DNA from: a bacterium
GTDB taxonomy: Bacteria > Patescibacteriota > Patescibacteriia > JACPHY01
Reading direction: 5' to 3'
Assembly (NCBI GenBank): GCA_030647005.1
Contig: JAUSKG010000021.1
Coordinates: forward strand, 27,105-91,104
DNA: 64,000 nt
The notes below the pieces were generated by a model. That model was not told where the DNA came from and did not search any database. It saw only the letters and a list, made by a program, of their open reading frames with translations. This document shows, in pieces, positions 3,733-47,763 of the stretch (position 1 is its first letter; every line of letters starts with the position of its first letter). The position numbers and the translations under genes are program-made.

Positions 3733-4323
3733 GTGGAGGATTCCGTGCAAGAGCATGCTGATGGGAAGCGGAAGCGTGTACCGGTACCAATGCGCGTTGG
3801 GAAGATGCTCACCCTCGTGAACGTGACGTACCAGCGAAGCTGGGATGCGGGCGCGGGTGTGTACCAGTCGCGTGCGGTCGTCGTGCTCCACATGGTTGGA
3901 CACGAGGATATGCTCTGTCACGGGATCGGCAGAGCACCTGCGGGGACGATCACCGCCATCGAACTCGCGCTGCGCGATGCGATCAGCAGAGCCAGTGACA
4001 TCGCGGTGCCACCCCCCGAGCTCCTCGCGTTCGAGATTCACGTCGCGTCCGGCAACACCGAGCCGAGTGCTCCGGCGAACGCGACTGCGGAGGTGAGCGT
4101 GGCGGGCTGCAAGCGGCGCGTGCAGATTGACCACCCCGACGGTGCGACCGCTGGCGCACTCCTCCTTTTCGATGTCTACGATCTCCACCTCTTCGAGCGC
4201 TGGAGTACCCTCCTCAAGGGCGCGCACGTCGATCCCCATGAGGTCCTCGAGCGTGTTCGTACGTATCGCAACCGTCCCGTCGCCGGAGATGGGGTGGGGT
4301 TCCCATCCTCCGACCCTCCGTGA
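3733..4323 (+). CDS. hypothetical protein; start uncertain (GTG 3733/3745 with SD ggagga, or ATG 3790)
   Basis: High-GC ORF followed by a clear hairpin terminator; the overlapping minus ORF 3688..4506 is Arg/Ser-rich antisense-like and was rejected. Confidence 0.4.
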   Translation: MEDSVQEHADGKRKRVPVPMRVGKMLTLVNVTYQRSWDAGAGVYQSRAVVVLHMVGHEDMLCHGIGRAPAGTITAIELALRDAISRASDIAVPPPELLAFEIHVASGNTEPSAPANATAEVSVAGCKRRVQIDHPDGATAGALLLFDVYDLHLFERWSTLLKGAHVDPHEVLERVRTYRNRPVAGDGVGFPSSDPP

Positions 4324-8906: not shown

Positions 8907-9107
8907 GGGGGCTTTGGACAGGGTATCGCTTGGGGAAAATCCCTGGACAGTGCCGGTCCTTGCGCGTTTTTTGGGATGTGCTACGATAGTTTTGACACGC
9001 AATTCTTAAAGGTGGAATCGCTTTTTTTATTGCAACTAAGCCAAGAGTCGGACAGTGGTGTCATCAGCGTCATTGCTGCTGCGCCATGAACGTCACCTAT
9101 TCGAAAT

Positions 9108-10366: not shown

Positions 10367-10729
10367 ATGCCGAAAGCAAAAGACAAGAAGCAAGCGGCCA
10401 CGACGGCGAGCCCCGAGCGAGAAGAAACATCGCGCATTCGCATCAAGATTCGTGCCTACGATCACAAGATCATTGACGAGTCGGCGAAGACGATCGTGGA
10501 GACCGCGAAGCGCTCCGGTGCGTTGGTGCGCGGGCCTGTGCCGCTGCCGACCGAGCGTCGTCGCTACACGGTGAACCGTTCGCCGTTCAAGCACAAGCGC
10601 GCGCGCGATCAGTACGAGATGCGTATCCACAAGCGCCTGCTCGATATCATGCAGCCAACCCCGAAGACCGTCGAGGCGCTGACGACACTCAACTTGCCGG
10701 CAGGTGTGAATATTGAGGTGAAGATGTAG
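10367..10729 (+). CDS. rpsJ: 30S ribosomal protein S10
   Basis: [40 protein letters not shown]... Confidence 0.95.
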
Positions 10730-19918: not shown

Positions 19919-20368
19919 ATGTACTCCCTCCACACGCTCAAGCCATCTCCGAAGAGCACCCACACGACGAAGCGACTTGGTCGCGGTCATGGTTCTGGTC
20001 GCGGGAAGACCGCAGGGCGCGGCACGAAAGGACAGAAGGCCCGCAGCGGCGGTCGCGGCGGTCTCAAGCGACTCGGCATGCGTCCGATGCTCCTCCAACA
20101 GCCCAAGAAGCGCGGGTTCCGGAGTCCGCACGAGAAGTGCGCTTCGGTGAACATTGGTGATGTCGCCGCTGCGGTTGCCGCGGGGACAACCGTCACGCCA
20201 AAGATTCTCGTCGGTGTGCGGCTCATCGCGCACCGCCGTCACGGCGCGAAGGTACTCGGTGGTGGCACGTGCGACAAGCAGTTGGTCTTCAAAGGCCTCG
20301 AGGTCTCCGCGAGTGCAAAGGCGAAGATTGAAGCAGCGGGCGGTAGCGTCATCACGGAAACGCGTTGA
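19919..20368 (+). CDS. rplO: 50S ribosomal protein L15 (follows S5 directly; no L30 gene)
   Basis: MYSLHTLKPSPKSTHTTKRLGRGHGSGRGKTAGRGTKGQ. Confidence 0.93.
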   Translation: MYSLHTLKPSPKSTHTTKRLGRGHGSGRGKTAGRGTKGQKARSGGRGGLKRLGMRPMLLQQPKKRGFRSPHEKCASVNIGDVAAAVAAGTTVTPKILVGVRLIAHRRHGAKVLGGGTCDKQLVFKGLEVSASAKAKIEAAGGSVITETR

Positions 20369-20402
20369 GCACACGTCGGTGATGCCGACGCGTGCAGGAG
20401 TT

Positions 20403-21686
20403 ATGCTCGATACGCTCAAGACCATGTGGAAGGTGCGCGAGGTCAGGAACGCCATCCTGTTCGTCTTGGGCATGCTCGCCATTTTCCGATTCCTCGCGCA
20501 CATTCCGGTGCCCGGTGTTGATGTTGCAGCACTCGAGCAATTCTTCGCGTCGAGCGCAATCCTCGGACTCCTCAACGTCTTTTCCGGAGGCACCATGGAG
20601 AACTTCTCCATCGTCGCGTTGGGTGTAGCACCGTTCATCACCGCGTCCATCATCTTCCAGCTCCTCGGGATGGTCATTCCGGCGATCGAGGAACTCCAGA
20701 AGGAGGGCGAGTACGGTCGGCGGAAGATCAACCAGTACACGCGTCTCCTCTCCATCCCGCTCTCCATCATGCAGGGGTTTGGACTCATGACGCTCGTGCG
20801 CCAGTCCAATGCGGCAATCCTCCCGGACCTCAGCATCATGCAGACCGTCATGCTCCTCACGACGGTGACCGCGGGCACGGTATTCCTCATGTGGCTCGGC
20901 GAGCTCATCTCGGAGAAGAACGTCGGCAACGGCATTTCGCTCATGATTTTCGCTGGCATCATCTCGATACTCCCGCAGGCCGTCCAGCAGACGGCACTCA
21001 CGTTTGATGTTTCGCGGCTCGTACAGCTCCTCGTCTTCGTCATACTCGCGATCGTGACGATCATTGGCGTGGTCGCGCTCACCGAGGCACAGCGGAACAT
21101 CCCCGTCTCCTACGCGCGGCGCGTTCGCGGGATGCGCATGGTGGGGGGGTTGAACACGCACCTGCCATTGCGCGTGAACATGGCCGGTGTTATCCCCATC
21201 ATCTTCGCAATCTCCATCATCCTCTTCCCACCGCTCCTCGGGCAGTTCTTCATCCACGCGAAGACCGCGTGGATCGCGCGCGGTGCCGAGCTCATGATCA
21301 CCATCTTCCAGAACCAAGTGTTCTACGGCATCGCGTACTTTTCCCTCGTGTTCATCTTCACGTTCTTCTACACTGCCGTCGTGTTCCACCCACAGCAGAT
21401 TGCGGAGAATCTTCAGAAGCAGGGTGGTTTCATTCCAGGCATTCGGCCTGGCCGCGCGACAGCCGAGTATCTCCAGTTCGTGACGAATCGTATCATCTTC
21501 TTTGGCGCGGCATCCCTCGGTCTCATTGCCATCCTCCCGATCCTCACCCAGCCGCTCATCCCGGGCGCCGCGCAGCTCACGACGATCGTCGGCGGCACCT
21601 CACTCCTCATCATCGTCTCCGTCGTCATCGAGAGCGTGAAGCAGGTGGGGAGTCAGCTGACGATGCGCGAGTACGAGGGACTGTGA
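20403..21686 (+). CDS. secY: preprotein translocase SecY
   Basis: 10-TM protein downstream of L15 with SecY-typical pattern; start by first plausible ATG (alt. 20382). Confidence 0.93.
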   Translation: MLDTLKTMWKVREVRNAILFVLGMLAIFRFLAHIPVPGVDVAALEQFFASSAILGLLNVFSGGTMENFSIVALGVAPFITASIIFQLLGMVIPAIEELQKEGEYGRRKINQYTRLLSIPLSIMQGFGLMTLVRQSNAAILPDLSIMQTVMLLTTVTAGTVFLMWLGELISEKNVGNGISLMIFAGIISILPQAVQQTALTFDVSRLVQLLVFVILAIVTIIGVVALTEAQRNIPVSYARRVRGMRMVGGLNTHLPLRVNMAGVIPIIFAISIILFPPLLGQFFIHAKTAWIARGAELMITIFQNQVFYGIAYFSLVFIFTFFYTAVVFHPQQIAENLQKQGGFIPGIRPGRATAEYLQFVTNRIIFFGAASLGLIAILPILTQPLIPGAAQLTTIVGGTSLLIIVSVVIESVKQVGSQLTMREYEGL

Positions 21687-25914: not shown

Positions 25915-27285
25915 ATGCAAGAAACACTTCGCATCGTTGACGTGCCGCAGCAGGTTGGCACAGACGTGACCATTGCCGGTCGGGTCGCATCGCGGCGGGA
26001 CATGGGGAAGATCGTCTTCCTCGACGTTCGCGATCGGTACGGGCTTCTCCAGGTTGTCCTGACACCGGACGTCCCCGTCGAGGATCGCCACGCGCCCCAC
26101 CCGAGCGTTCCCGGGACACCGGTAACGCAGAAGGATGTGCGCGAGGGCTCCTACGTCCGCATCACCGGACGCGTGAAGCAGCGCGGTGAGAAGTACGTGA
26201 ACCCGAACATCGCGACGGGCACCGTGGAGATGGAGGCGGGTCAGATCACGATCATCGCCACATCGCAACCCTTCCCCTTCGATCCCCAGGACGATCTCCA
26301 CATCGACACGTACCTCGATCACCTCCCATTCACGCTCCGTACCGACCGCGGGCGCGCGATCTTCCGCGTGCAGGCCGCTATCGTCGAGGGCTTCCGAAGC
26401 GCGCTCACGAAGCGCGGCTTCACGGAGTTCCACGCGCCGAGCATCGTCGGCGGCTCCACGGAGGGCGGGGCGAACGTCTTCACCATTGACTACTTTGGCA
26501 AGCCCGCGTTCCTCGCGCAGTCCCCGCAGTTCTACAAGCAGATCATGGTCGGCATCTTCGAACGCGCCTTCACCGTCGCCACCGCGTTCCGCGCCGAGCT
26601 CCACGCGACGAGTCGTCACCTCAACGAGTACTGCTCGCTCGACTTTGAGTTTGGCCCCATCACCGACCACCGCGATGTCATGCGCATGCAGAACGACATG
26701 CTCATTGATCTCGTCGCACACGTGCGCGCGGTCTGTGCGGACGAGATCGCCGTGCTCGGTGCCACGCTGCCGGAGGTGCCACCGACCATCCCATCGCTCA
26801 AGCTCCGCGAGGCGCAGGAGGTGCTCAAACGCGAGTTCGGCATGGATTGCGTCGGCGAGCCGGACCTCGAGCCCGAGCACGAGCGCAAGCTCTGCGAGTG
26901 GTCCGCACGGGAGCACAGCTCGGACTTCCTCTACGTCACGCACTACCCCACAGCCAAGCGTCCGCTCTACACCATGCCCGACCCCGAGGACCCCGAGTTC
27001 ACACTCTCCTTTGATTTGCTCTTCCGCGGCGTCGAAATCACCACTGGCGGCCAGCGCATCCACGACTACGAAATGCTCAAAGGCAACATCGTGAAGTGGG
27101 GCCTCGATCCTGCTAAGTTCACCTACTACCTCGAGGCCTTCCAATACGGCATGCCCCCCGAAGGCGGCCTCGCCATCGGCCTCGAACGCCTCACCCAGAA
27201 GCTCCTCGGCCTCGACAACGTCAAACTCGCCACCCTCTTCCCGCGAGACATCGGGCGCATTGATGATCGGCTGTCGGCGGGATAG
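25915..27285 (+). CDS. class IIb aminoacyl-tRNA synthetase, archaeal-type AspRS or AsnRS (456 aa)
   Basis: QSPQFYKQ, FRAE (motif 2), GGLAIGLERL (motif 3), N-terminal OB fold; Asp vs Asn not resolvable by eye. Confidence 0.85.
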   Translation: MQETLRIVDVPQQVGTDVTIAGRVASRRDMGKIVFLDVRDRYGLLQVVLTPDVPVEDRHAPHPSVPGTPVTQKDVREGSYVRITGRVKQRGEKYVNPNIATGTVEMEAGQITIIATSQPFPFDPQDDLHIDTYLDHLPFTLRTDRGRAIFRVQAAIVEGFRSALTKRGFTEFHAPSIVGGSTEGGANVFTIDYFGKPAFLAQSPQFYKQIMVGIFERAFTVATAFRAELHATSRHLNEYCSLDFEFGPITDHRDVMRMQNDMLIDLVAHVRAVCADEIAVLGATLPEVPPTIPSLKLREAQEVLKREFGMDCVGEPDLEPEHERKLCEWSAREHSSDFLYVTHYPTAKRPLYTMPDPEDPEFTLSFDLLFRGVEITTGGQRIHDYEMLKGNIVKWGLDPAKFTYYLEAFQYGMPPEGGLAIGLERLTQKLLGLDNVKLATLFPRDIGRIDDRLSAG

Positions 27286-27317
27286 TGTGTTCGTTCAGGA
27301 GAACATGCAATCACTCT

Positions 27318-27938
27318 ATGGTTATTACTGATCCGCCATCAAACGAAGGGGTTATGGTTCAGCGTGGTTGGGGATGGGTGCTCGCGTCTAGCGATAACGT
27401 CCCTCACGATCCCAGTGAGCATTGTCCAACACGGGATGTGTTTACGGGTCGGTTAGATCATGCCCGCATTCTTCTCGAGCGAGCACCAAAATTTCAGATG
27501 ATAGCATCGGAGCTCATCGCTGCGGTCGGAGAGATTGGGAACAACACGTTTGATCACAACATTGGACAGTGGCGAGATGTTCCAGGGTGTTGGTTCGGGT
27601 GGATGCTTGGAGATGGACATTGGACAGCGGTGATCGCCGATCGCGGCCAGGGTATTCTTGCAACATTGCGTCGTATTCGGCCGGAGCTCCATGATGATAT
27701 GGAGGCGCTTCGTGTTGCGTTCCGCGAGGTGATTTCTGGACGATCTCCCGAGCAGCGGGGGAATGGATTGAAGTTTGTTGCATCCGTCATCGGGCAACGC
27801 GGGGATCGGCAGCTTGAATTTCATTCTGGAGCAGCACAAGTCGTTCTGACATCTCCTAGAAAAGGACGGCACGAGGAATGGTCTCCATCTGTACGGGTGC
27901 TCCCGGGAACCCTTGCCATCCTTTCGGTTATGGTGTAG
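27318..27938 (+). CDS. minimal GHKL-superfamily ATPase, RsbW/SpoIIAB (anti-sigma serine kinase)-like
   Basis: N-box EIGNNTFDH, G1 VIADRGQGI (DxGxG), G2 GRSPEQRGNGLKFV; gene lies at edge of low-GC island; start ATG 27318 (alt GTG 27285). Confidence 0.7.
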   Translation: MVITDPPSNEGVMVQRGWGWVLASSDNVPHDPSEHCPTRDVFTGRLDHARILLERAPKFQMIASELIAAVGEIGNNTFDHNIGQWRDVPGCWFGWMLGDGHWTAVIADRGQGILATLRRIRPELHDDMEALRVAFREVISGRSPEQRGNGLKFVASVIGQRGDRQLEFHSGAAQVVLTSPRKGRHEEWSPSVRVLPGTLAILSVMV

Positions 27939-27953
27939 TATTTTGGTACAACT

Positions 27954-28244
27954 ATGAGAATTGCATTGAGTAAATTTGGGCCCATGTTGGTCTCCCGTCC
28001 CGCAGGTCGTGATGCCCTGTTGATTGCTTCTGCATACCTTACGCCCGTATCGGAAACCGAGTCGATCGAGATCGATTTTACCGGCGTGCATGTACTCACT
28101 CCCTCATGGGCAGACGAGTTTGTTACCGGACTCCGTAAGAAATACGGAGATCGGCTCGTGTTGCTTCCCTCCGATAATGTTTCCGTAAAGCTTACCCTTG
28201 CAACGATCGGTCAATCTCCGAAAACCGGACCTGACGCGGTTTGA
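27954..28244 (+). CDS. small STAS-like protein, DUF4325-type (96 aa)
   Basis: ...SIEIDFTGVHVLTPSWADEFVTGL... pattern of the STAS-like DUF4325 family (assignment from memory, not searched); 16 nt after the ATPase. Confidence 0.6.
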   Translation: MRIALSKFGPMLVSRPAGRDALLIASAYLTPVSETESIEIDFTGVHVLTPSWADEFVTGLRKKYGDRLVLLPSDNVSVKLTLATIGQSPKTGPDAV

Positions 28245-28254
28245 CACGTTCTGT

Positions 28255-28360
28255 GGAAAAAATCGGACCTGACACGATTACCTCTCACCATCTCGTTTTC
28301 ATAGCCCTCCCACACACGGCTGGGCGTTAGAAAAAAATCGGACCTGACACGATTACCGTT
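28255..28360 (+). repeat. Two direct copies of gaaaaaatcggacctgacacgattacc (GACACGATT family)
   Basis: Exact 27-mer at ~28255 and ~28331. Confidence 0.7.
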
Positions 28361-28389
28361 TGCTCGTCGAGAATTTAAAATAGAAACGT

Positions 28390-28584
28390 ATGCTGGACCT
28401 CAAACGCACTCTACTTGCAAAGGAGTTATTTCTGGCTGCCATTATCTTCTATGCCATGGCATGGTTGATCGGAGGTATTTTTGGAGACGCGCTGAAGCTA
28501 ATAGGGTTCATTGCCCTGGCCATGGCAATTATTGCTGCGATTCGTGAAGTCAGGAGAGAGGCAGCAGACAAATCAAAAAAATAA
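28390..28584 (+). CDS. hypothetical 64-aa protein with two TM helices and charged C-terminus
   Basis: MLDLKRTLLAKELFLAAIIFYAMAWLIGGIF...IGFIALAMAIIAAIREVRREAADKSKK; low-GC island. Confidence 0.45.
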   Translation: MLDLKRTLLAKELFLAAIIFYAMAWLIGGIFGDALKLIGFIALAMAIIAAIREVRREAADKSKK

Positions 28585-28602
28585 GGTAAATATAGATAGG
28601 AT

Positions 28603-28836
28603 AATGGTAGGATAATGGTGTCAGGTCTGATTGTCCGTTAAAAAGCGGACCCGACACGATTACTCTTGGGCGGTGGCGGATGTGACGCCGTGATATGATG
28701 ACCGCATGAAACCGGCACAGAGCAACATCGCTCACCTCGACGGCGCGAACGGAACGGAAGGTGCGAGCGATGGGAAAAAGAATCAGACCTGACATCATCA
28801 TCCTTGCTTTCTTCCGCTTGACACCATTATCCTCCA
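28603..28836. mobile_element. ~230-bp GC-rich insert bounded by inverted repeats (aggataatggtgtcaggtctgatt ... aatcagacctgac ... ttgacaccattatcct)
   Basis: Inverted 13-16-mers read directly; internal segment ~62% GC inside ~35% GC surroundings. Confidence 0.4.
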
Positions 28837-28844
28837 CTAAAAAT

Positions 28845-29417
28845 ATGGATAAACTAGAAAATATTTTTATTGGTTTTAGAAATAGTTCATTTGATGAAAT
28901 AATCAAGTTAAATCTTAACCACACTATTTCAAACAAGGAAAAACTAATTTTTAGAACTATTTTTGAAAATTCTGCAAATTTAATTGCTTCGTTTATCAAA
29001 GAAATAAAAGCAAGTAAGTCAATAGAGGAAAAAGATTTTGACTGGATGATGCTACTTTATGTTTTTGTTTGTGTTCAAGAACTTCATGACATACTAGATC
29101 GGGTAGAGAAAACAGACGATGCTCATATAAAAAATACACTGGATGTTAATAAACAAGATTTGATAAATCATCTTAAGAAAATATTAGGTGGTAAAGATAT
29201 GGGTAGTGTTGTGGATAAAACGTTTAATCACATAGAATCTTCTGATAAGGAATCGGGTAATTACAATGAATTTGTTGTTGGAAGAACTTATGTAATTTTT
29301 AGTATGTTAAAAGAAAATCAAGTTAATATTGAAAATATGTCAAGTGAAAAATTACTACAAATTTCAGAAGAAAATTATAAAAATAGTATAGTAAATTTTG
29401 TAAAGATTTGTGTCTAG
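28845..29417 (+). CDS. hypothetical protein, very low GC (~28%), 190 aa
   Basis: ATG 28845 (track ORF starts 28761); Lys/Asn/Ile-rich; no recognisable domain. Confidence 0.5.
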   Translation: MDKLENIFIGFRNSSFDEIIKLNLNHTISNKEKLIFRTIFENSANLIASFIKEIKASKSIEEKDFDWMMLLYVFVCVQELHDILDRVEKTDDAHIKNTLDVNKQDLINHLKKILGGKDMGSVVDKTFNHIESSDKESGNYNEFVVGRTYVIFSMLKENQVNIENMSSEKLLQISEENYKNSIVNFVKICV

Positions 29418-29526
29418 TAAAGAGAGCAAGGTAGAAAAAGGGAAAAAGGAAAGGGGAGATAAAGAGAGATAAAGTGAAAAAATGGACTTGACCCCTTTCT
29501 TGTCTTTCTTGCATTTGCTGCTTTCT

Positions 29527-29583
29527 TGACACTATAAAATCGGACTTGACACGATTTCCGTGGACATGACACGATTTCCGACA
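29527..29583 (+). repeat. Three tandem GACACGATTTCC copies (GACACGATT family)
   Basis: aaaatcggacttgacacgatttccgtggacatgacacgatttccgacacgatttcc immediately upstream of ATG 29594. Confidence 0.7.
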
Positions 29584-29593
29584 CGATTTCCAT

Positions 29594-29899
29594 ATGTGGG
29601 AGGATCTCGACAAAAAAGAAAAAGGGGAAGTCGTGAATTTGGGACTGGCTATTTTGGTCGGCTTGCTTTTCTTGACATATTTTATTCGGGGCGTGAGAGA
29701 TGCTCCTCATGTAGCTGACTACCGTGAGCAATTCAGTGACTGTATGGAGGGTGCAAAGAATGGTCAGGAGCGCTATTTTTGTAAGGAGCATTTTGGTGAA
29801 CCAATGCTTTGGTTACAATTCAAGGAATGCAAGAAGGACCAAAAAAATAAAGTATGTAAAAAAATATTAAATGAACAGCTAATGGATCTTTACAAATAA
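29594..29899 (+). CDS. hypothetical 101-aa protein, N-terminal TM anchor, Cys-rich ectodomain
   Basis: VVNLGLAILVGLLFLTYFI then CMEGAKNGQERYFCKEHF...KECKKDQKNKVCKK. Confidence 0.5.
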   Translation: MWEDLDKKEKGEVVNLGLAILVGLLFLTYFIRGVRDAPHVADYREQFSDCMEGAKNGQERYFCKEHFGEPMLWLQFKECKKDQKNKVCKKILNEQLMDLYK

Positions 29900-29902
29900 T
29901 TT

Positions 29903-29965
29903 GCAGAAATCGTGTCAATGCAGAAATCGTGCGAAAAACCGTGTGCCAAATCGTGTCAGGTCTGC
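29903..29965 (-). repeat. Three inverted-orientation copies of the GACACGATT motif
   Basis: cagaaatcgtgtcaatgcagaaatcgtgcgaaaaaccgtgtgccaaatcgtgtcaggtctg. Confidence 0.65.
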
Positions 29966-29977
29966 TCTGTTAATAAA

Positions 29978-30110
29978 GGGGTCAAGTCCATTTCTTCGAT
30001 GATGACGGCTATAGGGAGCACGAGGTGATCGAGTGCACAGATAAAGGGGTCAAGTCCATTTATTTGACGATGACGGCTATAGGGAGCACGAGGTGATCGA
30101 GTTTGGCCCA
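29978..30110 (+). repeat. Two tandem ~68-bp units (ataaaggggtcaagtccattt...gatgacggctatagggagcacgaggtgatcgagt) plus partial third
   Basis: Near-identical units at 29978-30045 and 30046-30113. Confidence 0.7.
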
Positions 30111-30197
30111 TTTCCCTTTCATAGAGGGAATACGAAGTGATCCAGAGCACTGCTTGGGGGGGGGTAGAGAAGGGTTGATCGAACGCGGCGTGCCGTC

Positions 30198-30659
30198 TCA
30201 TTGCATCGAGCAGAGGGTTGAGAAATCCGAGACCGAGAGCTCCGGGATTGGCGATGTCGTAATGGCAGCGCAATGACGCTTGTCCCTCGTGAAGCGTGCG
30301 AGGTAGAAGGAGCAGCTCCCGCGCTCGCCGTCGTTTTGTTGCTGTGCACACGTTTGCACGGCGTTGGCAGCGTCATTGAGGTCGCAGCGTTCCTCGATAT
30401 CCGCTGGACATGGTGCGTTGACGCAGACAAGTTGGTGTTCCACAGCGCTGTAGGAGCCGTTGAGTTTTCGACACCACTCCTCGGTGCGGCCGGTGACCTC
30501 GTACTGTCGCGCTGCCTGGGCAGGATCATCTGGCCATGCGGCATCATATGCCGCTCGACGTTGATCATCCGCTGCACGCCGCGCAACTGCCATGACAACG
30601 ATCGCGACAACAAGCGCAGCAATGGCGAGGAGTGCGATAGTTTGGTTGCGACGCGACAT
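30198..30659 (-). CDS. hypothetical secreted/membrane-anchored Cys-rich protein (153 aa)
   Basis: N-terminal TM IALLAIAALVVAIVVMAV; 10 Cys; overlapping + ORFs judged spurious. Confidence 0.55.
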   Translation of the reverse strand: MSRRNQTIALLAIAALVVAIVVMAVARRAADDQRRAAYDAAWPDDPAQAARQYEVTGRTEEWCRKLNGSYSAVEHQLVCVNAPCPADIEERCDLNDAANAVQTCAQQQNDGERGSCSFYLARFTRDKRHCAAITTSPIPELSVSDFSTLCSMQ

Positions 30660-30732
30660 ACGAGCTGGTGAGGGCCGATGCTTGAGTTTAGTTTCTTATC
30701 CCGTTCAGTATAGCACGAAAATCGAAGGTGGA

Positions 30733-30822
30733 TAAAGGGGTCAAGTCCATTTCTTTGACGATGGCGGCTATAGGGAGCACGAGGTGATCCAGTGAAAAAT
30801 GGACTTGACCCCTTTCTCCTTT
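30733..30822. mobile_element. MITE-like ~90-bp element with perfect 19-bp terminal inverted repeats (aaaggggtcaagtccattt / aaatggacttgacccctttc)
   Basis: Same internal sequence as the 29978 tandem units; solo right-end copies at ~29468-29496 and ~30823-30850. Confidence 0.6.
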
Positions 30823-30917
30823 CTTTCCGACATTGACCCCTTTCTTTCCGACAGCATCTGGACGCGGTGCTGCTCGTGTGCCATACTGCATGGAGGTCTT
30901 TAGACAAGGAGGAGCTC

Positions 30918-31154
30918 GTGGGAAGAATGATGTACAGGGTGCTTGGTATCTCGGGCGCGATGCTTTCGCTCGCGCATGCTGATCCCGGACTCGTGGCTGC
31001 GGATCCCCATATGAGGGTCAGTCCGGCGAGCCAGTGGATGTTCTTCGCCCTCCTCGTCGCAGTGCTGGCCTTCGTCGCGTTCGTCGAGTACGTTTGCGAA
31101 CGTCTCTCGTACTGGTGGGCGGGTCGCAGTCGCGCAGGCCATCGCCAGGCGTGA
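30918..31154 (+). CDS. small membrane protein upstream of P-type ATPase (signal peptide + TM)
   Basis: SD aaggagga then GTG 30918/ATG 30927; MMYRVLGISGAMLSLAHA...FFALLVAVLAFVAFVEYV. Confidence 0.45.
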   Translation: MGRMMYRVLGISGAMLSLAHADPGLVAADPHMRVSPASQWMFFALLVAVLAFVAFVEYVCERLSYWWAGRSRAGHRQA

Positions 31155-31226
31155 GCAACATCGCGCAGCACCCCGCTCCTCATCGGAGTGGGGTTTTTCG
31201 TTGTGGGTTTGGTACGATAGAGGACT

Positions 31227-33812
31227 ATGGAGGCAAAACAACAAACCCTGAACGATGTCCTCGCGGCACTCGGTACGGATGGGAGCGGCCTCACCGAGGG
31301 CGAGGTCATTCGTCGTCGGCAGCGATTTGGGTGCAACGTGCTGTCGGAGCGCGCGCGGCCGGGTGCGCTCGCGCACGCGGTTCATGAGCTCAAGAACCCC
31401 ATTCTCATCGTGCTCGCGGTAGCGGCGATTGCCGCGATCGCGTTCGGCGAGCGGGTGGATGGTCTCTTCATCCTCGCCACACTCGTGATCACCGCGGGGT
31501 TTGGTATGGTCATGGCACTCCGTGCGGAGCGCGCGCTCGATGCACTCCGGGGATTCCTCCACCCGAAGGCGATCGTGGTGCGGGGTGGTCACGAGGTCGC
31601 GGTGGACACGGAGGAGCTCGTGCCGGGCGACCTTCTCCTCCTGCGGCGCGGGATGCGCATTCCCGCGGACGCGCGCACCATCGAGGCGCGATCGCTCGAG
31701 GTGGATGAATCCATGCTCACGGGAGAGAGTGTGCCGGTACAGAAGACGACACTCGGCGGAACAGGGGAGCACGAGACACTCTCCCAGGGCACCCTCGTGG
31801 TTGAGGGGCAGGGCGTTGCGGTGGTGACGGCGATCGGGGCGGAGACGACATTCGCGAGTATTGCCGCATCGCTCACCGAGGAGCGCGAGCGCACGCCGCT
31901 CCAGGAGCAGCTTGCACAGTTCGCCCGCGTCGTCGCCATCGTCGTGACGGTCGCGGCGGTGACGCTCTCCGCCATCGGCATCGCGCGGGGGCTCGATGCA
32001 GGTGAGATGCTCGCGACGGCGATCGCGGTCGCAGTTGCCGCGGTGCCCGAGGGCCTCGCGGTTGCCATCACCGCCATTCTCGCGGTGGGGACCGTCCGCC
32101 TCGCGCGCAAGCAGTGCCTCGTGCGACGCATCATCGCGGCTGAGACGCTGGGGTCGGTCACCATCATCCTCACGGATAAGACAGGGACGCTCACCGAGGG
32201 TCGCATGCGCACCGTGGCGGTTCACCTCGTGGACGGCGGCGTGGGCGAGGTGCGCGTAGAACCCGGCATGGCGTGCGTCGAGGCGTGCGAGCGCATGATG
32301 GTCGCTGCGGCGATCGGCACCGAGGTGTCCATCGCAAACCCTGAGGCCGCGCCATCGGACTGGGAGTATTTGGGGTCTTCCACCGAGGCCGCACTCGTCA
32401 GTGCCGCAGGTACGGCGGGGGTTGATGTGTTGCGCACGCGCGCGGCGACGACCATCCTCGATCGCCTCCCGTTCTCCGTCGAGCGGAAGTACTCGGCAAC
32501 ATTGATCCAGCGCGCGAGCACGGAGCTCATCATATTGGGCGCGCCAGAGTACGTCACCCACGCACCGCTCCCGCAGCGCATCCTCGAGGAGCTCGACGTG
32601 CGTGCGCGCGAGGGCTTCCGCATCGTCGCGGCTGCGGGCACGCCGGTGTCCAAAAAAATGACGCGCATCGCGGACCTCGGTGACGATCTCGTGGACGGCG
32701 CAGTGCTCCTCGGCCTCTTCTTCATCCGCGATCCGCTTCGGCAAGATGCTGCCCGTGCGATTGCCGCGGCGCAGCAAGCGGGCGTGCGGACGATCATGGT
32801 GACTGGAGATCACCCCGCCACCGCGAAGCGTATTGCCGAGGACGCAGGCCTTGCGGCCGGTGAGCCGGTCGTCATGACCGGCACAGAGCTCGAGGGGCTC
32901 TCCGATACGGCACTCCACGAGCGCATCGCATCGGTGGATATCTTCGCGCGGACGTCGCACGCGCAGAAGGCGCGGCTCGTTGCCGCCTGGCGTGCGCGTG
33001 GCGAGGCGGTCGCGGTGACCGGCGACGGTGTGAACGATGCTCCAGCACTCGCGGCGGCGGACATCGGCATCGCGATGGGGTCGGGCACGGATGTCTCCCG
33101 CGAAGCGGCGGACCTCGTCCTCCTCGACAACAAGTACGAGACCATCGTCGAGGGTATCCGTGGCGGGCGCGCGATGTGGGACAATATCCGGAAGACGGCG
33201 AACTACCTCCTCATCTCCGGCTTCACCGAGCTCCTCCTCGTGGGCGTGTCCGTCTTCACCGGTTTGCCGCTCCTCATACTCCCCGCGCAGATCCTCTGGG
33301 TGAATCTCCTGGAGGACACCCTGCCGGCGGCGGCGCTCGCGTTTGAGCCACCCGAGTCCGGCATCATGGACGAGCCGCCGCGCAAGCGATCCGCGTCGCT
33401 CTTTGATCCCGAGATGCGCGCGTTCGTGTTCGGCGTGGGCCTGGTGACCGACATCTTCCTCATCGGCGCAGGGTTCGCGCTCTACCACATCACCGGTGAC
33501 CTCGATCTCACGCGCACGATTGTCTTTGGTGCACTCGCCGCGAATTCCCTCTTCGTCATCTTCGCGGTTCGGTCGCGTCGTCGCCCGATCTGGCGCACGC
33601 GTCCCTGGGAGAACCCCGCGCTCCTCATCGCGATTGCCATTGCGATTGCACTCCTTCTCTTTGGGCTCCTCGCGCCTGCGGTTCGGCCGCTCTTGCGTAC
33701 GGTGCATATTCCCCTTTGGGGGTGGGGTATCATCATCGGCCTCAGCGTCGTAAACCTCGTTGCCGTGGAGGCAGTGAAAGCAGTATTCCGTATGCGTCGC
33801 TCTCCCGTATGA
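31227..33812 (+). CDS. cation-transporting P-type ATPase (P2-type, Ca2+/Mg2+-like)
   Basis: DKTGTLT phosphorylation site, TGDHPATA, GDGVNDAPALAAADIGIAMG, N-terminal cation-ATPase domain. Confidence 0.93.
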   Translation: MEAKQQTLNDVLAALGTDGSGLTEGEVIRRRQRFGCNVLSERARPGALAHAVHELKNPILIVLAVAAIAAIAFGERVDGLFILATLVITAGFGMVMALRAERALDALRGFLHPKAIVVRGGHEVAVDTEELVPGDLLLLRRGMRIPADARTIEARSLEVDESMLTGESVPVQKTTLGGTGEHETLSQGTLVVEGQGVAVVTAIGAETTFASIAASLTEERERTPLQEQLAQFARVVAIVVTVAAVTLSAIGIARGLDAGEMLATAIAVAVAAVPEGLAVAITAILAVGTVRLARKQCLVRRIIAAETLGSVTIILTDKTGTLTEGRMRTVAVHLVDGGVGEVRVEPGMACVEACERMMVAAAIGTEVSIANPEAAPSDWEYLGSSTEAALVSAAGTAGVDVLRTRAATTILDRLPFSVERKYSATLIQRASTELIILGAPEYVTHAPLPQRILEELDVRAREGFRIVAAAGTPVSKKMTRIADLGDDLVDGAVLLGLFFIRDPLRQDAARAIAAAQQAGVRTIMVTGDHPATAKRIAEDAGLAAGEPVVMTGTELEGLSDTALHERIASVDIFARTSHAQKARLVAAWRARGEAVAVTGDGVNDAPALAAADIGIAMGSGTDVSREAADLVLLDNKYETIVEGIRGGRAMWDNIRKTANYLLISGFTELLLVGVSVFTGLPLLILPAQILWVNLLEDTLPAAALAFEPPESGIMDEPPRKRSASLFDPEMRAFVFGVGLVTDIFLIGAGFALYHITGDLDLTRTIVFGALAANSLFVIFAVRSRRRPIWRTRPWENPALLIAIAIAIALLLFGLLAPAVRPLLRTVHIPLWGWGIIIGLSVVNLVAVEAVKAVFRMRRSPV

Positions 33813-34303
33813 ATCACCCCAATCCCTACGCGTGCATTGTGGCCAAGCTCGAACGTGCAGGTGTGACGTTCAAGCAGCACGAGCACGCGCCGGTGCGCAC
33901 CTCGCAGGAGGCCGCAACGATCCGTGGTACGAGCATTGAAGAAGGTGCGAAGGCACTCGTGTGTCATGTGGATAAGTCACGCTACGTGCTCGCGGTGCTC
34001 TCCGCCGCGTTCCAGGCGGACCTCCCCGCCCTCCGGCGGAAGCTCGGGGCGAAGAAGCTCGCACTCGCGTCGCCAGAGGAGGTGCTGCGGGAGACGGGGT
34101 GCGAGGTGGGTGGCGTGCCACCGTTCGGTTCGTGTATCGGTCTCATGACGTACTGTGACCCCTCACTCCGCGCGCACGAGCATATCTCCTTCAACGCCGG
34201 CCTCCGGACGCACTCCATCGTCATGCGTTTTGTGGATTACCTCGCCATTGAACAGCCCACCGTCACTCCATTCGCCAAACAGGTGCCTGGCGCGGTACAA
34301 TAG
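33809..34303 (+). CDS. YbaK/ProX-family aminoacyl-tRNA deacylase
   Basis: ...ETGCEVGGVPPFG... signature of YbaK/ProX editing domain; ATGA overlap with ATPase stop. Confidence 0.8.
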   Translation: MNHPNPYACIVAKLERAGVTFKQHEHAPVRTSQEAATIRGTSIEEGAKALVCHVDKSRYVLAVLSAAFQADLPALRRKLGAKKLALASPEEVLRETGCEVGGVPPFGSCIGLMTYCDPSLRAHEHISFNAGLRTHSIVMRFVDYLAIEQPTVTPFAKQVPGAVQ

Positions 34304-34327
34304 AGTCCAGTTCTTCTCCCACCATCT

Positions 34328-34921
34328 ATGATCTCCAAACGTCTTCTCAATCACCTCGATAAGCGGGGTATCGCCTATGCGGTTGTGCCGCACCGGAAGG
34401 TCTTCACCGCGTTTGATCTGGCGCAGACCTTGGATGCGGATCCCAAGCACGTCGCGAAGACCGTCCTCGTCCGCGCGGATCGTGACCTCGTGCTCGTGAG
34501 TGTTCCGGCACACAGTCGGTTGGACTTCGCGCGGATGAAGAAGGTGCTCGGCGCGAAGCAGGTGACGCTCGCGTCGGAGCGGGCGATGGAGCAGCTGAAG
34601 ATCAAGGAGGGGACGACACCACCGTTCGCATCGTTCTTCAAGATCGCCTGCGTGCTCGACAGCGGATTGGCGAAGTGCAAGACGATGCTCTGCCGATCTG
34701 GCAGTCACACGGAATCGCTCGACTGCTCCGTTGCGAACTACATTGCGAGCGAGGAACCGACGATTGCGAAAGTGAGCGAGCGCGCGAAGCGAGCACCGGC
34801 GAAGCGGCGTGCGCCTGTAAAAGCGAAGCGTGCACCGGCGAAAGCGAAGCGGACGACCGCGAAGCGTCCCACGAAGCGGAAGGCGGTCCGCAGGAAGCCC
34901 GCAGCGCGGAAGCGGTCGTAG
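34328..34921 (+). CDS. divergent YbaK/ProX-like deacylase with C-terminal Lys/Arg/Ala-rich (KAKRAPA-repeat) tail
   Basis: Parallel architecture to 33809..34303 (…IKEGTTPPFASFF…), then RAKRAPAKRRAPVKAKRAPAKAKRTTAKRPTKRKAVRRKPAARKRS. Confidence 0.65.
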   Translation: MISKRLLNHLDKRGIAYAVVPHRKVFTAFDLAQTLDADPKHVAKTVLVRADRDLVLVSVPAHSRLDFARMKKVLGAKQVTLASERAMEQLKIKEGTTPPFASFFKIACVLDSGLAKCKTMLCRSGSHTESLDCSVANYIASEEPTIAKVSERAKRAPAKRRAPVKAKRAPAKAKRTTAKRPTKRKAVRRKPAARKRS

Positions 34922-34933
34922 TACGCGGGACGC

Positions 34934-35641
34934 ATGCGCCCCGCGCTCCAGCCATTCGACGGGCCGCTCGACCTCCTCCTGCGCCTCATTGAGCAGGAGG
35001 AGCTCGACATCACCACCGTGGCGCTCGCTGGGGTGTGCGAGTCGTACCTCGCGCACCTCAAGCAGGTGGAGCAACGGACGCCGGAAGCCGTGGCGGATTT
35101 CCTCGTCATTGCGGCGAAGCTCCTCTACCTCAAGTCGCTCGTCCTCCTGCCCGAGGCGGAGGGCGACGCGGAGGAGGACGAGACGGGACTCGCGGCGCAG
35201 CTCCGCATCTACCGCGCGTTCGCGGAGGCGGCAACGGGTATCGCCGAGCAGTTCAGCGTGTCTCCACGGATGCACCCGAGCGCGCGGGTGCCGGTGATCG
35301 TACCATCATTTCTCCCGCCGAAGCGCGTTGACCTCGCAATGCTCGGGCAGGTCATGGTGCACCTCATCGCGGAGCTCGAGCCCATCGTGCGGATCCCGAA
35401 GGCGACGATCGGTCGCACCATCTCCATTGAGGATCGCATTGCAGAGTTGCGGGCGCTCGTCGCGGCGCGTTCCCGCGTGACACTCCACGACGTGCTCCGC
35501 GGGCGAACGGGACGTCGGGAACAGATCGTCTCGTTCCTCGCGGTTCTTGAGCTCGTCCGGCAGCAGGAGGTTGTCGCAATCCAGTCCTCGCAGTTCTCCC
35601 CGATTGCCATCGAGCGTTCCTCGGATGGACGCTCGCGTTGA
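34934..35641 (+). CDS. scpA: segregation and condensation protein A
   Basis: MRPALQPFDGPLDLLLRLIEQEELDITTVALAGVCESYL... Confidence 0.85.
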   Translation: MRPALQPFDGPLDLLLRLIEQEELDITTVALAGVCESYLAHLKQVEQRTPEAVADFLVIAAKLLYLKSLVLLPEAEGDAEEDETGLAAQLRIYRAFAEAATGIAEQFSVSPRMHPSARVPVIVPSFLPPKRVDLAMLGQVMVHLIAELEPIVRIPKATIGRTISIEDRIAELRALVAARSRVTLHDVLRGRTGRREQIVSFLAVLELVRQQEVVAIQSSQFSPIAIERSSDGRSR

Positions 35642-35643
35642 AC

Positions 35644-36258
35644 ATGGCCATAGCTATGTCGAAAGATACCGCACCCACCATTGACCTCCACCGCGCGCTC
35701 GAGACCATCCTCTTCCTGTCCGGCAAGCCGCTCACGATGAAGAAGATCGCGGTGCTCCTCGGGAGCGATCTCCAGACCGCACGGGATGCCGTCGCTGCGT
35801 TCCAGACGACATGGAATGCGCGCGGCGGTGGAACGATGGTCGCGGCGACGGAGGAGCAAGTGCAGCTCGTCTCCCACCCGGATTGCCAGGCCATCGCGGA
35901 GACGATAGCGAGCGACGAGGTGCGCGGTGAGCTCACCCGTCCGCAGCTCGAAGCGCTCACGGTCGTCGCGTACCGCGGCCCGATCACGAAGGCGGAGCTC
36001 GAGCACATCCGCGGTGTCCACTGCGGACTCATCATCCGAAACCTCCTCATGCGCGGACTCATCGTGAGCGCGCGCGATCGCGCACGTGGCGAGGATATCT
36101 TCACGGTGTCGATGGATTTCCTCCGTCACCTCGGCATCGCGGATCTCCGCGAGCTCACGGACTACGAGCGGCTCCACAACGACGCGATCATCCGCGAGTA
36201 CCTCGCCATGGCGCACGGCGAGGAGGGCGGTGAAGTGGTCGCGGCACCGCCGGTCTGA
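35644..36258 (+). CDS. scpB: segregation and condensation protein B
   Basis: ScpB winged-helix pattern; follows scpA with overlap. Confidence 0.85.
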   Translation: MAIAMSKDTAPTIDLHRALETILFLSGKPLTMKKIAVLLGSDLQTARDAVAAFQTTWNARGGGTMVAATEEQVQLVSHPDCQAIAETIASDEVRGELTRPQLEALTVVAYRGPITKAELEHIRGVHCGLIIRNLLMRGLIVSARDRARGEDIFTVSMDFLRHLGIADLRELTDYERLHNDAIIREYLAMAHGEEGGEVVAAPPV

Positions 36259-36261
36259 GCT

Positions 36262-36400
36262 CCATCTCCCTCTCGTCATTTCGAGCGAAGTGAGCGCACG
36301 GGCGAACGAAGTCGAGAAATCTCATATGGAGATCTCTCCGCTCTCTGTTGCGGAGCCTGCCCTGAGCGAGTCCGCGAGTCGAACGGGGTCGAGATGACGA
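36262..36400. repeat. Family A repeat copy between scpB and dacA
   Basis: tcgtcatttcgagcgaagtgagcgcacgggcgaacgaagtcgagaaatctc...gagcgagtccgcgagtcgaacggggtcgagatgacg. Confidence 0.65.
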
Positions 36401-38433: not shown

Positions 38434-38507
38434 AGCGGGGTGGAGCAGTTTGGCAGCTCGCCAGGCCCATAACCTGGAGGTCGTCGGTTCAAATCCGACC
38501 CCCGCCA
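38434..38507 (+). tRNA. initiator tRNA-Met (CAT); no encoded CCA
   Basis: Acceptor, D and T arms nearly identical to E. coli tRNA-fMet (GCGGGGTGGAGCAG...GGTCGTCGGTTCAAATCCG); 1:72 A-C mismatch; anticodon loop cCCATAA. Confidence 0.85.
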
Positions 38508-38584: not shown

Positions 38585-38656
38585 GGCGGGGTAGCTCAGT
38601 GGTAGAGCAGCGGACTCATAAGCCGTTGGTCGCGGGTTCAACCCCCGCCCCCGCTA
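38585..38656 (+). tRNA. tRNA with CAT anticodon (elongator Met or lysidine-dependent Ile)
   Basis: ggcgggg acceptor, D-arm tagctcagtggtagagca, loop ctCATaa, T-arm gcgggttcaaccccc. Confidence 0.8.
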
Positions 38657-39449: not shown

Positions 39450-39519
39450 GTAGCGTTATTGTACCAGAGTGCCACGATCCATGGTACGATGGATATCTCG
39501 CATACGCTTGCAGCTCACT

Positions 39520-40281
39520 ATGGCACAGGTCGTCGCGATCGTCAATCAGAAGGGTGGGGTGGGGAAGACGACAACCGCGCTCTCCCTCGCGAGCTTCCTC
39601 GCGGAGCACGGGAAGTTCGTTCTCCTCATTGATATGGACCCGCAGGCCAATGCCGCCTCGGGCTTGGGCATTGACTACCGGAGCGTGTCGCGCGGCGTCT
39701 ACGAAGTCCTCTCGGGGGACTGTCGGCCGCGGGAGGCCGTTGTTGTGACAGCGCAGGAGGGGCTCCACTGCATGCCGTCATCGCCCGCGCTCGCGGGGGC
39801 GAACATCGAGCTCGTCTCCGTCGAGCGGCGCGAGTTTCAGCTCGCCGACGCGCTCGTGGAGCTCCGCAATAGCTACGACATCATCCTCATTGACTGCCCG
39901 CCGTCGCTTGGCCTCCTCACGCTCAACGCCCTCTGCGCGGCAGATCAAGTTCTCATTCCGGTGCAGGCCGAGTACTACGCGCTCGAGGGGTTGGGGCAAC
40001 TCATGGAGACGATCGAGCTTGTGCGCAAGCAGCTCCGGCCGGAACTCCGCGTGCTCGGTGCCGTCATTACGATGTACGAGGGACGCCTCCGCCTCTCGAA
40101 CGACGTCCTCGAGGAGCTCTACCGACACTTCCCGAACCGCGTCTTCCGGTCGGTCATCCCGCGGAACGTCCGCCTCGCCGAGGCACCGTCCCACGGGCTG
40201 CCGATCACGCGGTACGATCCTCGTTCGCGCGGGGCGCGGGCGTACGAGAAGCTGACGGAGGAACTGTTGCAGTGCCTGTGA
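39520..40281 (+). CDS. parA: chromosome partitioning ATPase ParA/Soj
   Basis: VVAIVNQKGGVGKTTTALSLASF deviant Walker A. Confidence 0.92.
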   Translation: MAQVVAIVNQKGGVGKTTTALSLASFLAEHGKFVLLIDMDPQANAASGLGIDYRSVSRGVYEVLSGDCRPREAVVVTAQEGLHCMPSSPALAGANIELVSVERREFQLADALVELRNSYDIILIDCPPSLGLLTLNALCAADQVLIPVQAEYYALEGLGQLMETIELVRKQLRPELRVLGAVITMYEGRLRLSNDVLEELYRHFPNRVFRSVIPRNVRLAEAPSHGLPITRYDPRSRGARAYEKLTEELLQCL

Positions 40282-40371
40282 GGAGATCGCTGCGCAGATC
40301 GCATAGATGATGCGCTGATGATAGCACTTGAGAATTGAGATTGCGAGCGTCGCTCGCCTGTTGTACGAGGT

Positions 40372-41256
40372 ATGACCATCCGTCAACGTGGGCTCGGCAG
40401 AGGACTCTCTGCGCTCATCCCCAGCGTTCCGCCAGCGGCCTTAGAACCGCAGCAGCGCAGCACCTCGGGCATGCTCGTGGTGCCGCCGGAGCAGATCCTC
40501 CCCAACCCCATGCAGCCGCGGCGGGATTTCCCACCCGCGGAGCTTGACGCACTCGCAGCGTCCATCCGCGCGCACGGCATCCTCCAGCCGCTCGTGGTCT
40601 CTCGACGCACCGATGGCCGGTATGAGCTCATCGCGGGGGAACGTCGCTTGCGCGCATCGCGGCGCGCGGGACTCGTCACCGTCCCCATCGTTATCCGTGA
40701 CGGTGTCGTAGATGACCGGACGAAGCTCGAGCTCGCCATTGTGGAGAACGTCCAGCGCGAGCACCTCAACGCGATTGATCGCGCGCTCGCGTACGAGCAG
40801 CTCGCGGAGGAGTTCGGGCTCACGCACGAGCAGATCGCCGAGCGCGTCGGCGTTGCACGTCCGAGCATCACGCACGTCCTCCGGCTCCTCGCGCTCCCCG
40901 AAGATATGCGGCAGGCGGTGCGCGACGGGCGGGTCTCCGAGGGGCACGCGAAGGTGCTCCTCGGCATCGCGGACCCCGCGGAGCAGCGCGCGTGGTTCCT
41001 CCGCATCCTCGAGGGTGGACTCTCGGTTGCACAGGCGGCACGGGAGACGCCGCGCAAGCGGCTAGCCCCGCGATCTCCTCGCGCGGCGACCGGTACGGCA
41101 TCCGATCCCAACCTCCGCGCGAAAGCGCTCGCGCTCCAGCAACGCCTTGGCGCGAAGGTGCGCATCGAGGCGAACGCGAGCGGCGGCGGGACGATTGCCA
41201 TCACGTACACCGACCGTGAGGAGCTCGACGGTATCGTCCAGACCATCACCGCATGA
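40372..41256 (+). CDS. parB: chromosome partitioning protein ParB/Spo0J
   Basis: RGLGRGLSAL, GERRLRASRRAGL, HTH region. Confidence 0.92.
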   Translation: MTIRQRGLGRGLSALIPSVPPAALEPQQRSTSGMLVVPPEQILPNPMQPRRDFPPAELDALAASIRAHGILQPLVVSRRTDGRYELIAGERRLRASRRAGLVTVPIVIRDGVVDDRTKLELAIVENVQREHLNAIDRALAYEQLAEEFGLTHEQIAERVGVARPSITHVLRLLALPEDMRQAVRDGRVSEGHAKVLLGIADPAEQRAWFLRILEGGLSVAQAARETPRKRLAPRSPRAATGTASDPNLRAKALALQQRLGAKVRIEANASGGGTIAITYTDREELDGIVQTITA

Positions 41257-47469: not shown

Positions 47470-47763
47470 TCAGCACAGTTCGGGGTACAAGTCGCGCAAT
47501 GCGGGGTTCGTGGCTCTGATGAGTTCCAGCTTCTTAATCCTGCTCCAGCGTTTGAGCTGCTTCTCGCGCTCGATAGCATCCATGGCGGTCGCGTACTGCT
47601 CGTAGTAGATGAGGACAGTGCAGTGGTATCGCTCGGTAAACCCTCTGACAAATTTTTCCTGATGCTCCCAAACGCGGCGGATGAGGTTGTTGGTGATACC
47701 GATGTAGAGGACGGTGCGTTTGACGTTCGTGAGAATGTAGACGTAGTAGTGGCGCTCGTCCAT
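47470..47763 (-). CDS. GIY-YIG domain nuclease, small stand-alone type (97 aa)
   Basis: YYVYILTNVKRTVLYIGITNNLIRRVWEH ... ERE ... KKLELI (GIY-YIG/URI signature). Confidence 0.85.
   Translation of the reverse strand: MDERHYYVYILTNVKRTVLYIGITNNLIRRVWEHQEKFVRGFTERYHCTVLIYYEQYATAMDAIEREKQLKRWSRIKKLELIRATNPALRDLYPELC

Follow-up and report, generated by a model that had tools for sequence, protein, structure and literature searches.

An uncultured groundwater bacterium carries in its chromosome, with aspS on one side and a P-type ATPase gene on the other, an island of 3.9 kb (27285–31226; seven open reading frames (ORFs) of 28–62% GC) in which short, nearly identical repeats stand between small genes; the question raised by this locus is what those repeats do and how they came to be there. 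The locus was analyzed within a window of 64,000 nt (assembly GCA_030647005.1, contig JAUSKG010000021.1, positions 27,105–91,104 of the forward strand), in whose coordinates all positions are given here. The answer favored, at a probability of roughly 0.35, is that the repeat units act in cis as the sites of a recombinase or transposase whose gene lies elsewhere and that they mark the junctions of cassettes.

The existence of the repeat family and its confinement, within the window, to the island are matters of direct observation. The motif GACACGATT is present in eight exact copies (six on the plus strand, two on the minus strand), all between 28271 and 29957; shuffled sequence yields 0.98 ± 1.1 copies and none of 100 shuffles reaches eight, which bears out the proposal of an earlier note on this DNA that a real repeat family, in both orientations, frames the small genes. 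When up to two mismatches are allowed, GACNTGACACGATT has 10 matches, nine of them at 28228–29962 and the tenth, at 59320, an ordinary host promoter (TTGACA-N17-TATCTT). A 24-nt weight matrix trained on the long-form copies finds 15 sites at or above its cut-off of 10 bits, all at 28224–30821 (0.3 per shuffle), and none in the remaining 61 kb; the degenerate consensus GGATAAWGGKGTCARGTC with up to three mismatches likewise gives 10 sites, all at 28266–30819, against 0.18 in shuffles.

What the motif represents is a single arm of a wider family, which numbers about 20 units of 12–26 nt, a tally that includes the short 12-nt forms (a8, r3–r5 and a half B unit at 30833). Aligned on the plus strand, the units have a common left half, AAAT(C)GGACYTGAC, and fall into three subtypes according to their right halves: ACGATTWCC (A), ACCATTATCC (A′) and CCCTTTMTCC (B). 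The sister repeat B, AAATGGACTTGACCCCTTT, has five exact copies (29480, plus; 29975, 30043 and 30734, minus; 30797, plus), three of which are embedded in 63-nt repeats that are 94–95% identical. Identity among units is far above that of their flanks (26/26 between units a2 and a3; 19/19 among all five copies of B), which points to recent copying or to strong constraint. Internal dyads are only 5–7 bp; the best in A is 10+9+10 (7/10), and a weak 9+7+9 dyad in the B unit, GAAAAATGG-ACTTGAC-CCCTTTCTC (7/9), is not significant alone. Core-to-core spacing is irregular (10, 28, 75, 20, 12, 17, and 12 nt), with the units distributed over five separate joints; of the intergenic DNA from 28245 to 30926 (1146 nt), 53% consists of units. 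A '+' unit, in the gene's own orientation, lies upstream of each of orf64 (28390–28584, plus), orf190 (28845–29417, plus), orf101 (29594–29899, plus), orf153 (30198–30659, minus) and orf75 (30927–31154, plus).

Read from its 5′ end, the series opens with two overlapping degenerate A units, a1 and a1b (GGACCTGACGCGGTT and TTGACACGTTCTG; 28219–28253, plus, of which a1 is 28219–28247; 19.8 bits by the matrix), followed by the A units a2 (AAAAAATCGGACCTGACACGATTACC; 28257–28282, plus; 31 bits) and a3 (28332–28357, plus), which are identical 26-mers, not the 27-mers at 28255 and 28331 that had been reported. Unit a3 forms a 20-nt inverted repeat (18/20 complementary) with 28613–28632 in r1 (28597–28632, minus), an A′ unit (AATCAGACCTGACACCATTATCCT; 32.8 bits) whose GGATAATGGT end is duplicated in tandem over 12 nt. 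Unit a4 (28639–28664, plus), which makes a 56-bp palindrome with r1, is the copy previously noted near 28650; it is present, with one mismatch in its core (GACCCGACACGATT). A spacer of 112 bp and 62% GC (28665–28776), without a match elsewhere in the window, separates a4 from the A′ units a5 and a5′ (28777–28833, plus), which end 11 nt before the orf190 ATG. On the far side of orf190 stands unit B1 (AAATGGACTTGACCCCTTT; 29468–29501, plus), and then a direct A array (a6, a7, and a8; 29534–29591, plus) that ends 2 nt before the ATG at 29594. Three tandem copies had been described before this ATG, and three units are there, two of them long (29543 and 29563) and one short (29580). Directly after the orf101 stop begins an inverted A array (29900–29971, minus) made up of the short units r3, r4, and r5 and the long unit r2; inverted units had been correctly placed here, as three copies at 29903–29965, but the array holds two exact and two degenerate units and spans 29900–29971. 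It is followed by about 2.5 tandem copies, with a period of 68 nt, of a B unit joined to a tail of 44 nt (CTATAGGGAGCACGAGGTGATC; 29972–30145, minus), which is taken as non-coding because successive copies lie in different reading frames, and, further on, by the half B unit (TTGACCCCTTTCTTTCCGACA; 30833–30853, plus). The copies at 28224, 28609–28632 (minus), 28777–28804, and 28815–28833, and the whole of sister family B, are additional to those of the earlier note.

These units delimit four modules bounded by inverted repeats. U1 (28336–28632; arms 18/20), with a3 as its left arm, encloses orf64; U2 (28609–28804; a 24-nt inverted repeat, 22/24) encloses a4 and the 62%-GC spacer; U3 (29476–29997) encloses orf101 between outer 26-nt B arms (24/26, or 92%), the left one in B1 and the right one at 29972–29997; and U4 (30730–30819; inverted B units, 22/23, around a 44-nt tail) lies between the divergent orf153 and orf75. 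The direct-then-inverted frame once drawn around 28845–29899 was misplaced: it is orf101 and orf64 that are framed by inverted pairs. One arm is common to U1 and U2, and U2 and U4 have in common a terminal repeat that starts with GGATAA. Two of the four modules (U1 and U3) each hold one small membrane-protein ORF, and in U3 three direct A units on one side of orf101 face four inverted units on the other.

The setting of these modules is a mosaic in a core chromosome. The host, of about 63% GC, is an Uhrbacteria-like bacterium of the Candidate Phyla Radiation (CPR), its best aspartyl-tRNA synthetase (AspRS) relatives being Candidatus Uhrbacteria and other Patescibacteria (67–72% identity). The window carries a ribosomal-protein cluster, SecY, a CitMHS transporter, Adk, Map, RecO, and AspRS ahead of the island, and P-type ATPase, YbaK, ScpA, ScpB, ParA, and ParB on its 3′ side. 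In L032, which is the closest among the relatives with long contigs, synteny is kept and only 78 bp separate the aspS stop from the ATPase start, and in other relatives (L033 and L034/35) the DNA directly 3′ of aspS holds other cargo, a 626-aa ORF in one and a Gp49/helix-turn-helix (HTH) pair in the other. Because L032 lacks the island and the other relatives carry different cargo, the comparison identifies 27285–31226 as an insertion at a variable spot. Along the island, steps of 100 nt have GC contents as low as 0.17 and as high as 0.62; that of the host is about 0.63.

One piece of this mosaic is orf190, a horizontally acquired gene of 28% GC that encodes an all-helical conserved protein. 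The closest of its seven homologues belongs to a 36%-GC CPR genome from Hainich groundwater (L014), where its neighbors are an NYN gene and recG; the DNA of that genome is 86.5% identical, but only within 28839–29423 (the ORF ± 6 nt), a stretch of homology that starts 5 nt after the end of the final A′ unit. The ratio of nonsynonymous to synonymous substitution (dN/dS) is 0.11 with dS 0.63, as under purifying selection, so that orf190 is functional and unameliorated. The pieces of the island differ in origin, and the limits of one foreign ORF are known to 6 nt. Assembly error does not account for the mosaic, since independently assembled Logan contigs are identical to the window over 27133–30030 and 30740–36289, across the junctions, and break only inside B units; mis-assembly or a chimera was rejected on this ground.

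According to the favored reading, the units would be att-like or terminal-repeat-like junction sites; a protein would bind them and recombination would proceed through them, so that ORF-sized cassettes could be inserted, duplicated, and perhaps inverted, with the enzyme supplied in trans from elsewhere in the genome. Several features argue for this. Each joint between the independently acquired ORFs of the mosaic is occupied by units, and since unrelated donor ORFs are all accompanied by the same conserved unit, junction or recombination sites fit better than operators. A common left half and GGACYTGAC center joined to differing right halves is the pattern expected of hybrid sites that arise by crossover in a common core. 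The tight boundary of the foreign ORF, the hotspot location, and the alternative right halves are what would be seen at junction sites of site-specific recombination or transposition. The layout of U3, with its three direct and four inverted units inside an outer 26-nt inverted repeat, resembles that of multi-site transposon ends. A protein-binding role at the level of DNA is favored as well, the tandem arrays having no RNA structure and no unit being a sigma-70 promoter. A bolder form of the proposal, that the island exposes a previously undescribed CPR system of cassette capture and shuffling, integron-like, with GGACYTGAC-centered sites of about 25 bp, tandem 12-nt accessory units, and an unlinked recombinase, is improbable; such a system would install single foreign ORFs (for example from CPR donors of 28–36% GC into this 63%-GC host) at the hotspot downstream of aspS, and could invert them.

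Several results weigh against junction sites of this kind. Roughly 40 ORFs of the window were scanned; they gave housekeeping domains only, without a recombinase, an integrase, or a transposase among them. The flanks of all four modules lack a target-site duplication (a direct repeat of 2–10 nt), and modules of both senses, [+...−] and [−...+], occur, which cannot be explained by a single definition of transposase ends. The units contain no attC R″/R′ boxes and no dif-like 11-6-11 geometry. Nor was a second locus found: exact-pattern scans with AATCGGACNTGACACGATT, the B 19-mer, and a tandem A dimer over 185,579 genomes, JGI metagenomes, and viral contigs returned no arrays, only single unrelated matches, several of which represent one and the same conserved fragment (ATCGGACGTGACACGATTATTTTC); the island has no DNA match among phage (50,697) or plasmid (72,556) records; related loci totaling 296 kb contain no units; and no comparable repeat family occurs at the hotspot in relatives or around the orf190 homologues. 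With no second locus found in genomes, metagenomes, viral contigs, phages, or plasmids, comparative evidence of mobility is lacking. An unrelated metagenome contig (JAEIGA010079458.1) carries GAAAATCGTGTCAC twice, at 60–85 and 321–345, 258 bp apart in AT-rich intergenic DNA, possibly by chance.

Known systems offer partial parallels. In mobile insertion cassettes (MICs) and miniature inverted-repeat transposable elements (MITEs), a passenger ORF or nothing at all lies between terminal inverted repeats of insertion-sequence (IS) or transposon type and is moved in trans, examples being the Tn3-family MICs of Xanthomonas (PMC4337579) and the qnrS2 MIC (PMC5444012). The modules described here resemble them in their size (90–522 bp), in their inverted repeats of 20–26 nt, in the single passenger ORF present in two of them, and in the absence of a transposase inside; they differ in that target-site duplications are missing, neither dispersed copies nor a cognate IS being known, and in that arms are held in common, modules of either sense occur, and solo copies in direct orientation and tandem blocks of 68 nt are found as well. 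The two ends of U3, one with three direct units and the other with four, are mutually inverted and have the long units outermost, as in transposon ends with multiple sites such as the TnsB sites of Tn7, L1–L3 and R1–R3 of Mu, and the 19-mers of Tn402/Tn5053. The cargo of U3, however, is a single ORF of 306 bp; it has neither transposition genes nor a 5-bp duplication, and its units, spaced at 12–20 nt, are packed more closely than the sites of about 22 bp found in those systems.

Integrons and the clusters of attC sites lacking integrases (CALINs) are resembled in the small, mostly orphan ORFs without Shine-Dalgarno sequences, of differing GC, that are packed between similar sites, and, as in CALINs, in the absence of a linked integrase: no integrase domain (intI) was found in the roughly 40 ORFs scanned. 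Unlike attC sites, which are imperfect palindromes of 57–141 bp, the joints here are mostly direct arrays, and one ORF lies on the opposite strand; a search of both strands of 28150–30950 for attC sites gave no R″ (RYYYAAC) and R′ (GTTRRRY) pair 50–150 nt apart. The pdif modules of Acinetobacter, which depend on XerC/D, are moved by a recombinase encoded elsewhere. With them the island has in common gene modules between short inverted sites, sites held in common by neighbors, and, in the proposal made here, a recombinase at another locus; the units differ from pdif in lacking the 11-6-11 dif architecture, the conserved XerD arm, and the ATAA-N6-TTAT core, and their orientation does not alternate regularly. 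Repetitive extragenic palindromic (REP) sequences and the mobile elements formed from them (REPINs) are imperfect palindromes of 20–40 nt with a GTAG end, which the units are not, and neither a REP-associated tyrosine transposase (RAYT) nor any other Y1 transposase was found among the scanned ORFs. The family lies outside the iteron, attC, dif, REP, and canonical MITE families, and the most suitable place for it is among cassette-junction or terminal-repeat sites, as a variant of them.

An alternative that is possible, if doubtful, is that the units form an operator array, that is, sites for a transcription factor encoded elsewhere which would co-regulate, and probably silence, foreign small genes through cooperative binding or looping. 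Such a role would account for the presence of a unit upstream of every small ORF in the orientation of the gene, for the tandem units that abut the start of orf101, and for the B palindrome between divergent genes; the spacings of 10 and 20 nt lie near helical multiples, although those of 12, 17, 28, and 75 nt are off-phase. It is also in keeping with the behavior of the arrays as RNA: the tandem arrays do not fold (z +0.78 for 29534–29591 and +1.41 for 29900–29971). TTGACA-like cores were considered as sigma-70 −35 elements and rejected, no unit having a usable −10; six promoter-like sites were found in 27900–31300, none of which uses a repeat unit, and host promoters elsewhere look canonical. 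The hexamer TTGACA itself, once thought to be embedded in every copy, is exact in only two GACACGATT copies (29546, plus; 29913, minus), the others having CTGACA, ATGACA, or CCGACA. What makes operators doubtful is that the island encodes no regulator or HTH protein and orf190 shows no DNA-binding fold; that unrelated ORFs from donors of 28–62% GC would each need to gain the same operator; that near-perfect identity over 19–63 nt is unusual for operators; and that copies also lie 3′ of genes and in tandem 68-nt blocks without genes.

Some phage-like features were observed in and around the B units. Each 63-nt B unit holds CTATAGGGAG, which equals positions −5 to +5 of T7-group phage promoters (30007–30030, 30075–30098, and 30766–30789), and TGACACTATA at 29527 (29527–29536) resembles the SP6 promoter core. 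The idea of a phage-type promoter in the B tails was rejected, as no gene for a phage-type RNA polymerase is present and the upstream match is poor; the likeness of CTATAGGGAG is probably coincidental. On the 3′ side of CTATAGGGAG stands GAGGTGATC, a 9-nt complement of the 16S rRNA 3′ end and hence a very strong Shine-Dalgarno-like sequence. The '+' B units begin with ATGGACTTGACCCCTTT and open short ORFs with an MDLTPF start at 29485–29532 and 30799–30903 (15 and 34 aa), the second of which has a strong GAGGTGATC 11 nt upstream; these could be leader peptides, or could be without meaning.

Selfish debris of MITE or REPIN type is a serious alternative, if again an unlikely one. The units would in that case be the ends of miniature non-autonomous elements, multiplied locally in AT-richer, gene-poor DNA, the only such DNA at their disposal, unrelated to the capture of ORFs, and mostly inert. 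Four inverted-repeat-bounded modules of 90–522 bp, the GGATAA-initiated terminal repeat common to U2 and U4, and the presence of truncated and tandem copies would all be natural for such elements; the gradient from A through A′ to B is as in diverging repeat families, and the host is compact, other intergenic DNA being scarce in it. Insertion at random would not, however, be expected to produce so tight a fit between units and ORFs (2, 0–3, and 11 nt), no autonomous partner is known, target-site duplications are again missing, and the 61 kb outside the island, despite some intergenic regions, hold not one copy.

Less probable still is a role in RNA, in which the inverted units would bring the two ends of each of the orf64 and orf101 mRNAs, 5′ with 3′, into pairing as panhandles and hide the start region, after the manner of fold-back inhibition in the mRNAs of small toxins of hok type. 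Both enclosed ORFs encode small hydrophobic proteins, neither has a Shine-Dalgarno sequence, and the full orf64 and orf101 cassettes are predicted to fold with their arms paired (z −4.2 and −4.5), the orf101 AUG lying in the innermost stem. This pairing, though, follows from the inverted repeat itself, and the mismatches in the arms are not preferentially G:U (one of two in U1, none of five in U3). No promoter was found that would place the 5′ arm in a transcript, nor an antisense gene, and the presence of three to four units per side, the solo direct units a1, a2, a4, and a5, and the B units would be left without explanation. Hairpins are also predicted for the 56-bp r1/a4 palindrome (z −2.3 and −2.8) and for U4 (z −4.3 and −5.7).

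The suggestion of the earlier note that the repeats are iterons left by a plasmid or phage replicon is largely refuted and can be set aside as very improbable, for although short direct arrays with some inverted copies flanking genes recall plasmid iterons and partition sites, the units (12–26 nt, direct and inverted) lie beside AT-rich DNA, and the right halves of A′ and B (TTATCCWMC; TTATCCACC at 30727) resemble a DnaA box, four profile libraries detected no Rep, initiator, or HTH protein among the small ORFs of the island (the ORF at 28845–29417, which had been singled out as a candidate, included) and no Par protein is encoded there, the spacing is irregular, the context is that of a syntenic chromosomal core without an inflection of GC skew, plasmid and phage records show no similarity, and the units are spread over five separate intergenic joints, not gathered in one origin-like block. 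Across the window, 21 sites match the DnaA-box consensus TTATCCACA with at most one mismatch, against 5.2 expected; they are scattered and unclustered, with exact examples at 8515, 29210, and 33967. The parA and parB genes lie at 39469–41256.

The interest of the locus depends on which of these readings is correct. CPR bacteria (Patescibacteria), uncultured organisms with tiny genomes, are believed to trade genes largely among themselves; to our knowledge, the mechanisms of that exchange are almost unknown. Here, an ORF-sized piece of low-GC CPR DNA lies in a high-GC CPR chromosome, between near-identical short repeats and at a spot that varies among relatives. If the units are recombination sites, as the junction-site reading holds, they would point to a cassette-type route by which episymbionts gain genes for small surface or membrane proteins; if they are only operators or debris, this is an ordinary variable island with unusually dense repeats. 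High interest would be justified only by a demonstration of cassette capture or inversion.

At the 5′ end of the island lies a 217-aa ORF (27285–27938, plus), which is also called as a gene on Logan contig L002; GHKL-ATPase-like motifs are visible by eye only, the match to PHROG 3364 is weak, and no Pfam or PDB match was found. It is followed by a gene for a DUF4325 (STAS-like) protein (27954–28244, plus; Pfam PF14213, E 5.6e-8), the last codons of which overlap unit a1. Searches of Pfam, NCBIfam, PHROGs, and PADLOC gave no match for the small ORFs beyond DUF4325. orf64 encodes a small predicted membrane protein, enclosed by a3 and r1, and orf101 an orphan small membrane-anchored protein whose only match among 5.8 billion proteins is itself. 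orf153 (60% GC) encodes a membrane-anchored Cys-rich protein and orf75 a small membrane protein with a canonical terminator on its 3′ side; both genes are absent from L032. Exact-protein look-ups of AspRS and orf153 returned no record.

In the Hainich genome (L014), copies of an 18-nt direct repeat (ATAATGAACAAyAAAATT; 9031–9048 and 10573–10590) stand on either side of the block formed by the NYN gene and the homologue of orf190; the second copy is the start of recG, so that orf190 may belong to a small insertion there too. Homologues L022–L031, at 56–73% identity, occur in at least four different gene neighborhoods, mostly on short contigs of 1–3 kb, which suggests that the family generally resides in variable or hard-to-assemble regions.

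Elsewhere in the window, Rfam finds four tRNAs and nothing else, and two tRNA-Met genes stand in tandem (38434–38507 and 38585–38656). The longest SecY ORF (20154–21686) is 510 aa, with the SecY domain starting at residue 152, compared with 427 aa in relatives; the extra length is probably an artifact of an upstream TTG start in the ORF listing. A second patch of lower GC (about 50%; 2001–4000), with ORFs at 2166–2957 and 2969–3569 and without A or B repeats, may also have been acquired. A stand-alone GIY-YIG ORF of 97 aa is found at 47470–47763 (minus), and similar mini-ORFs are variably present among Hainich strains.

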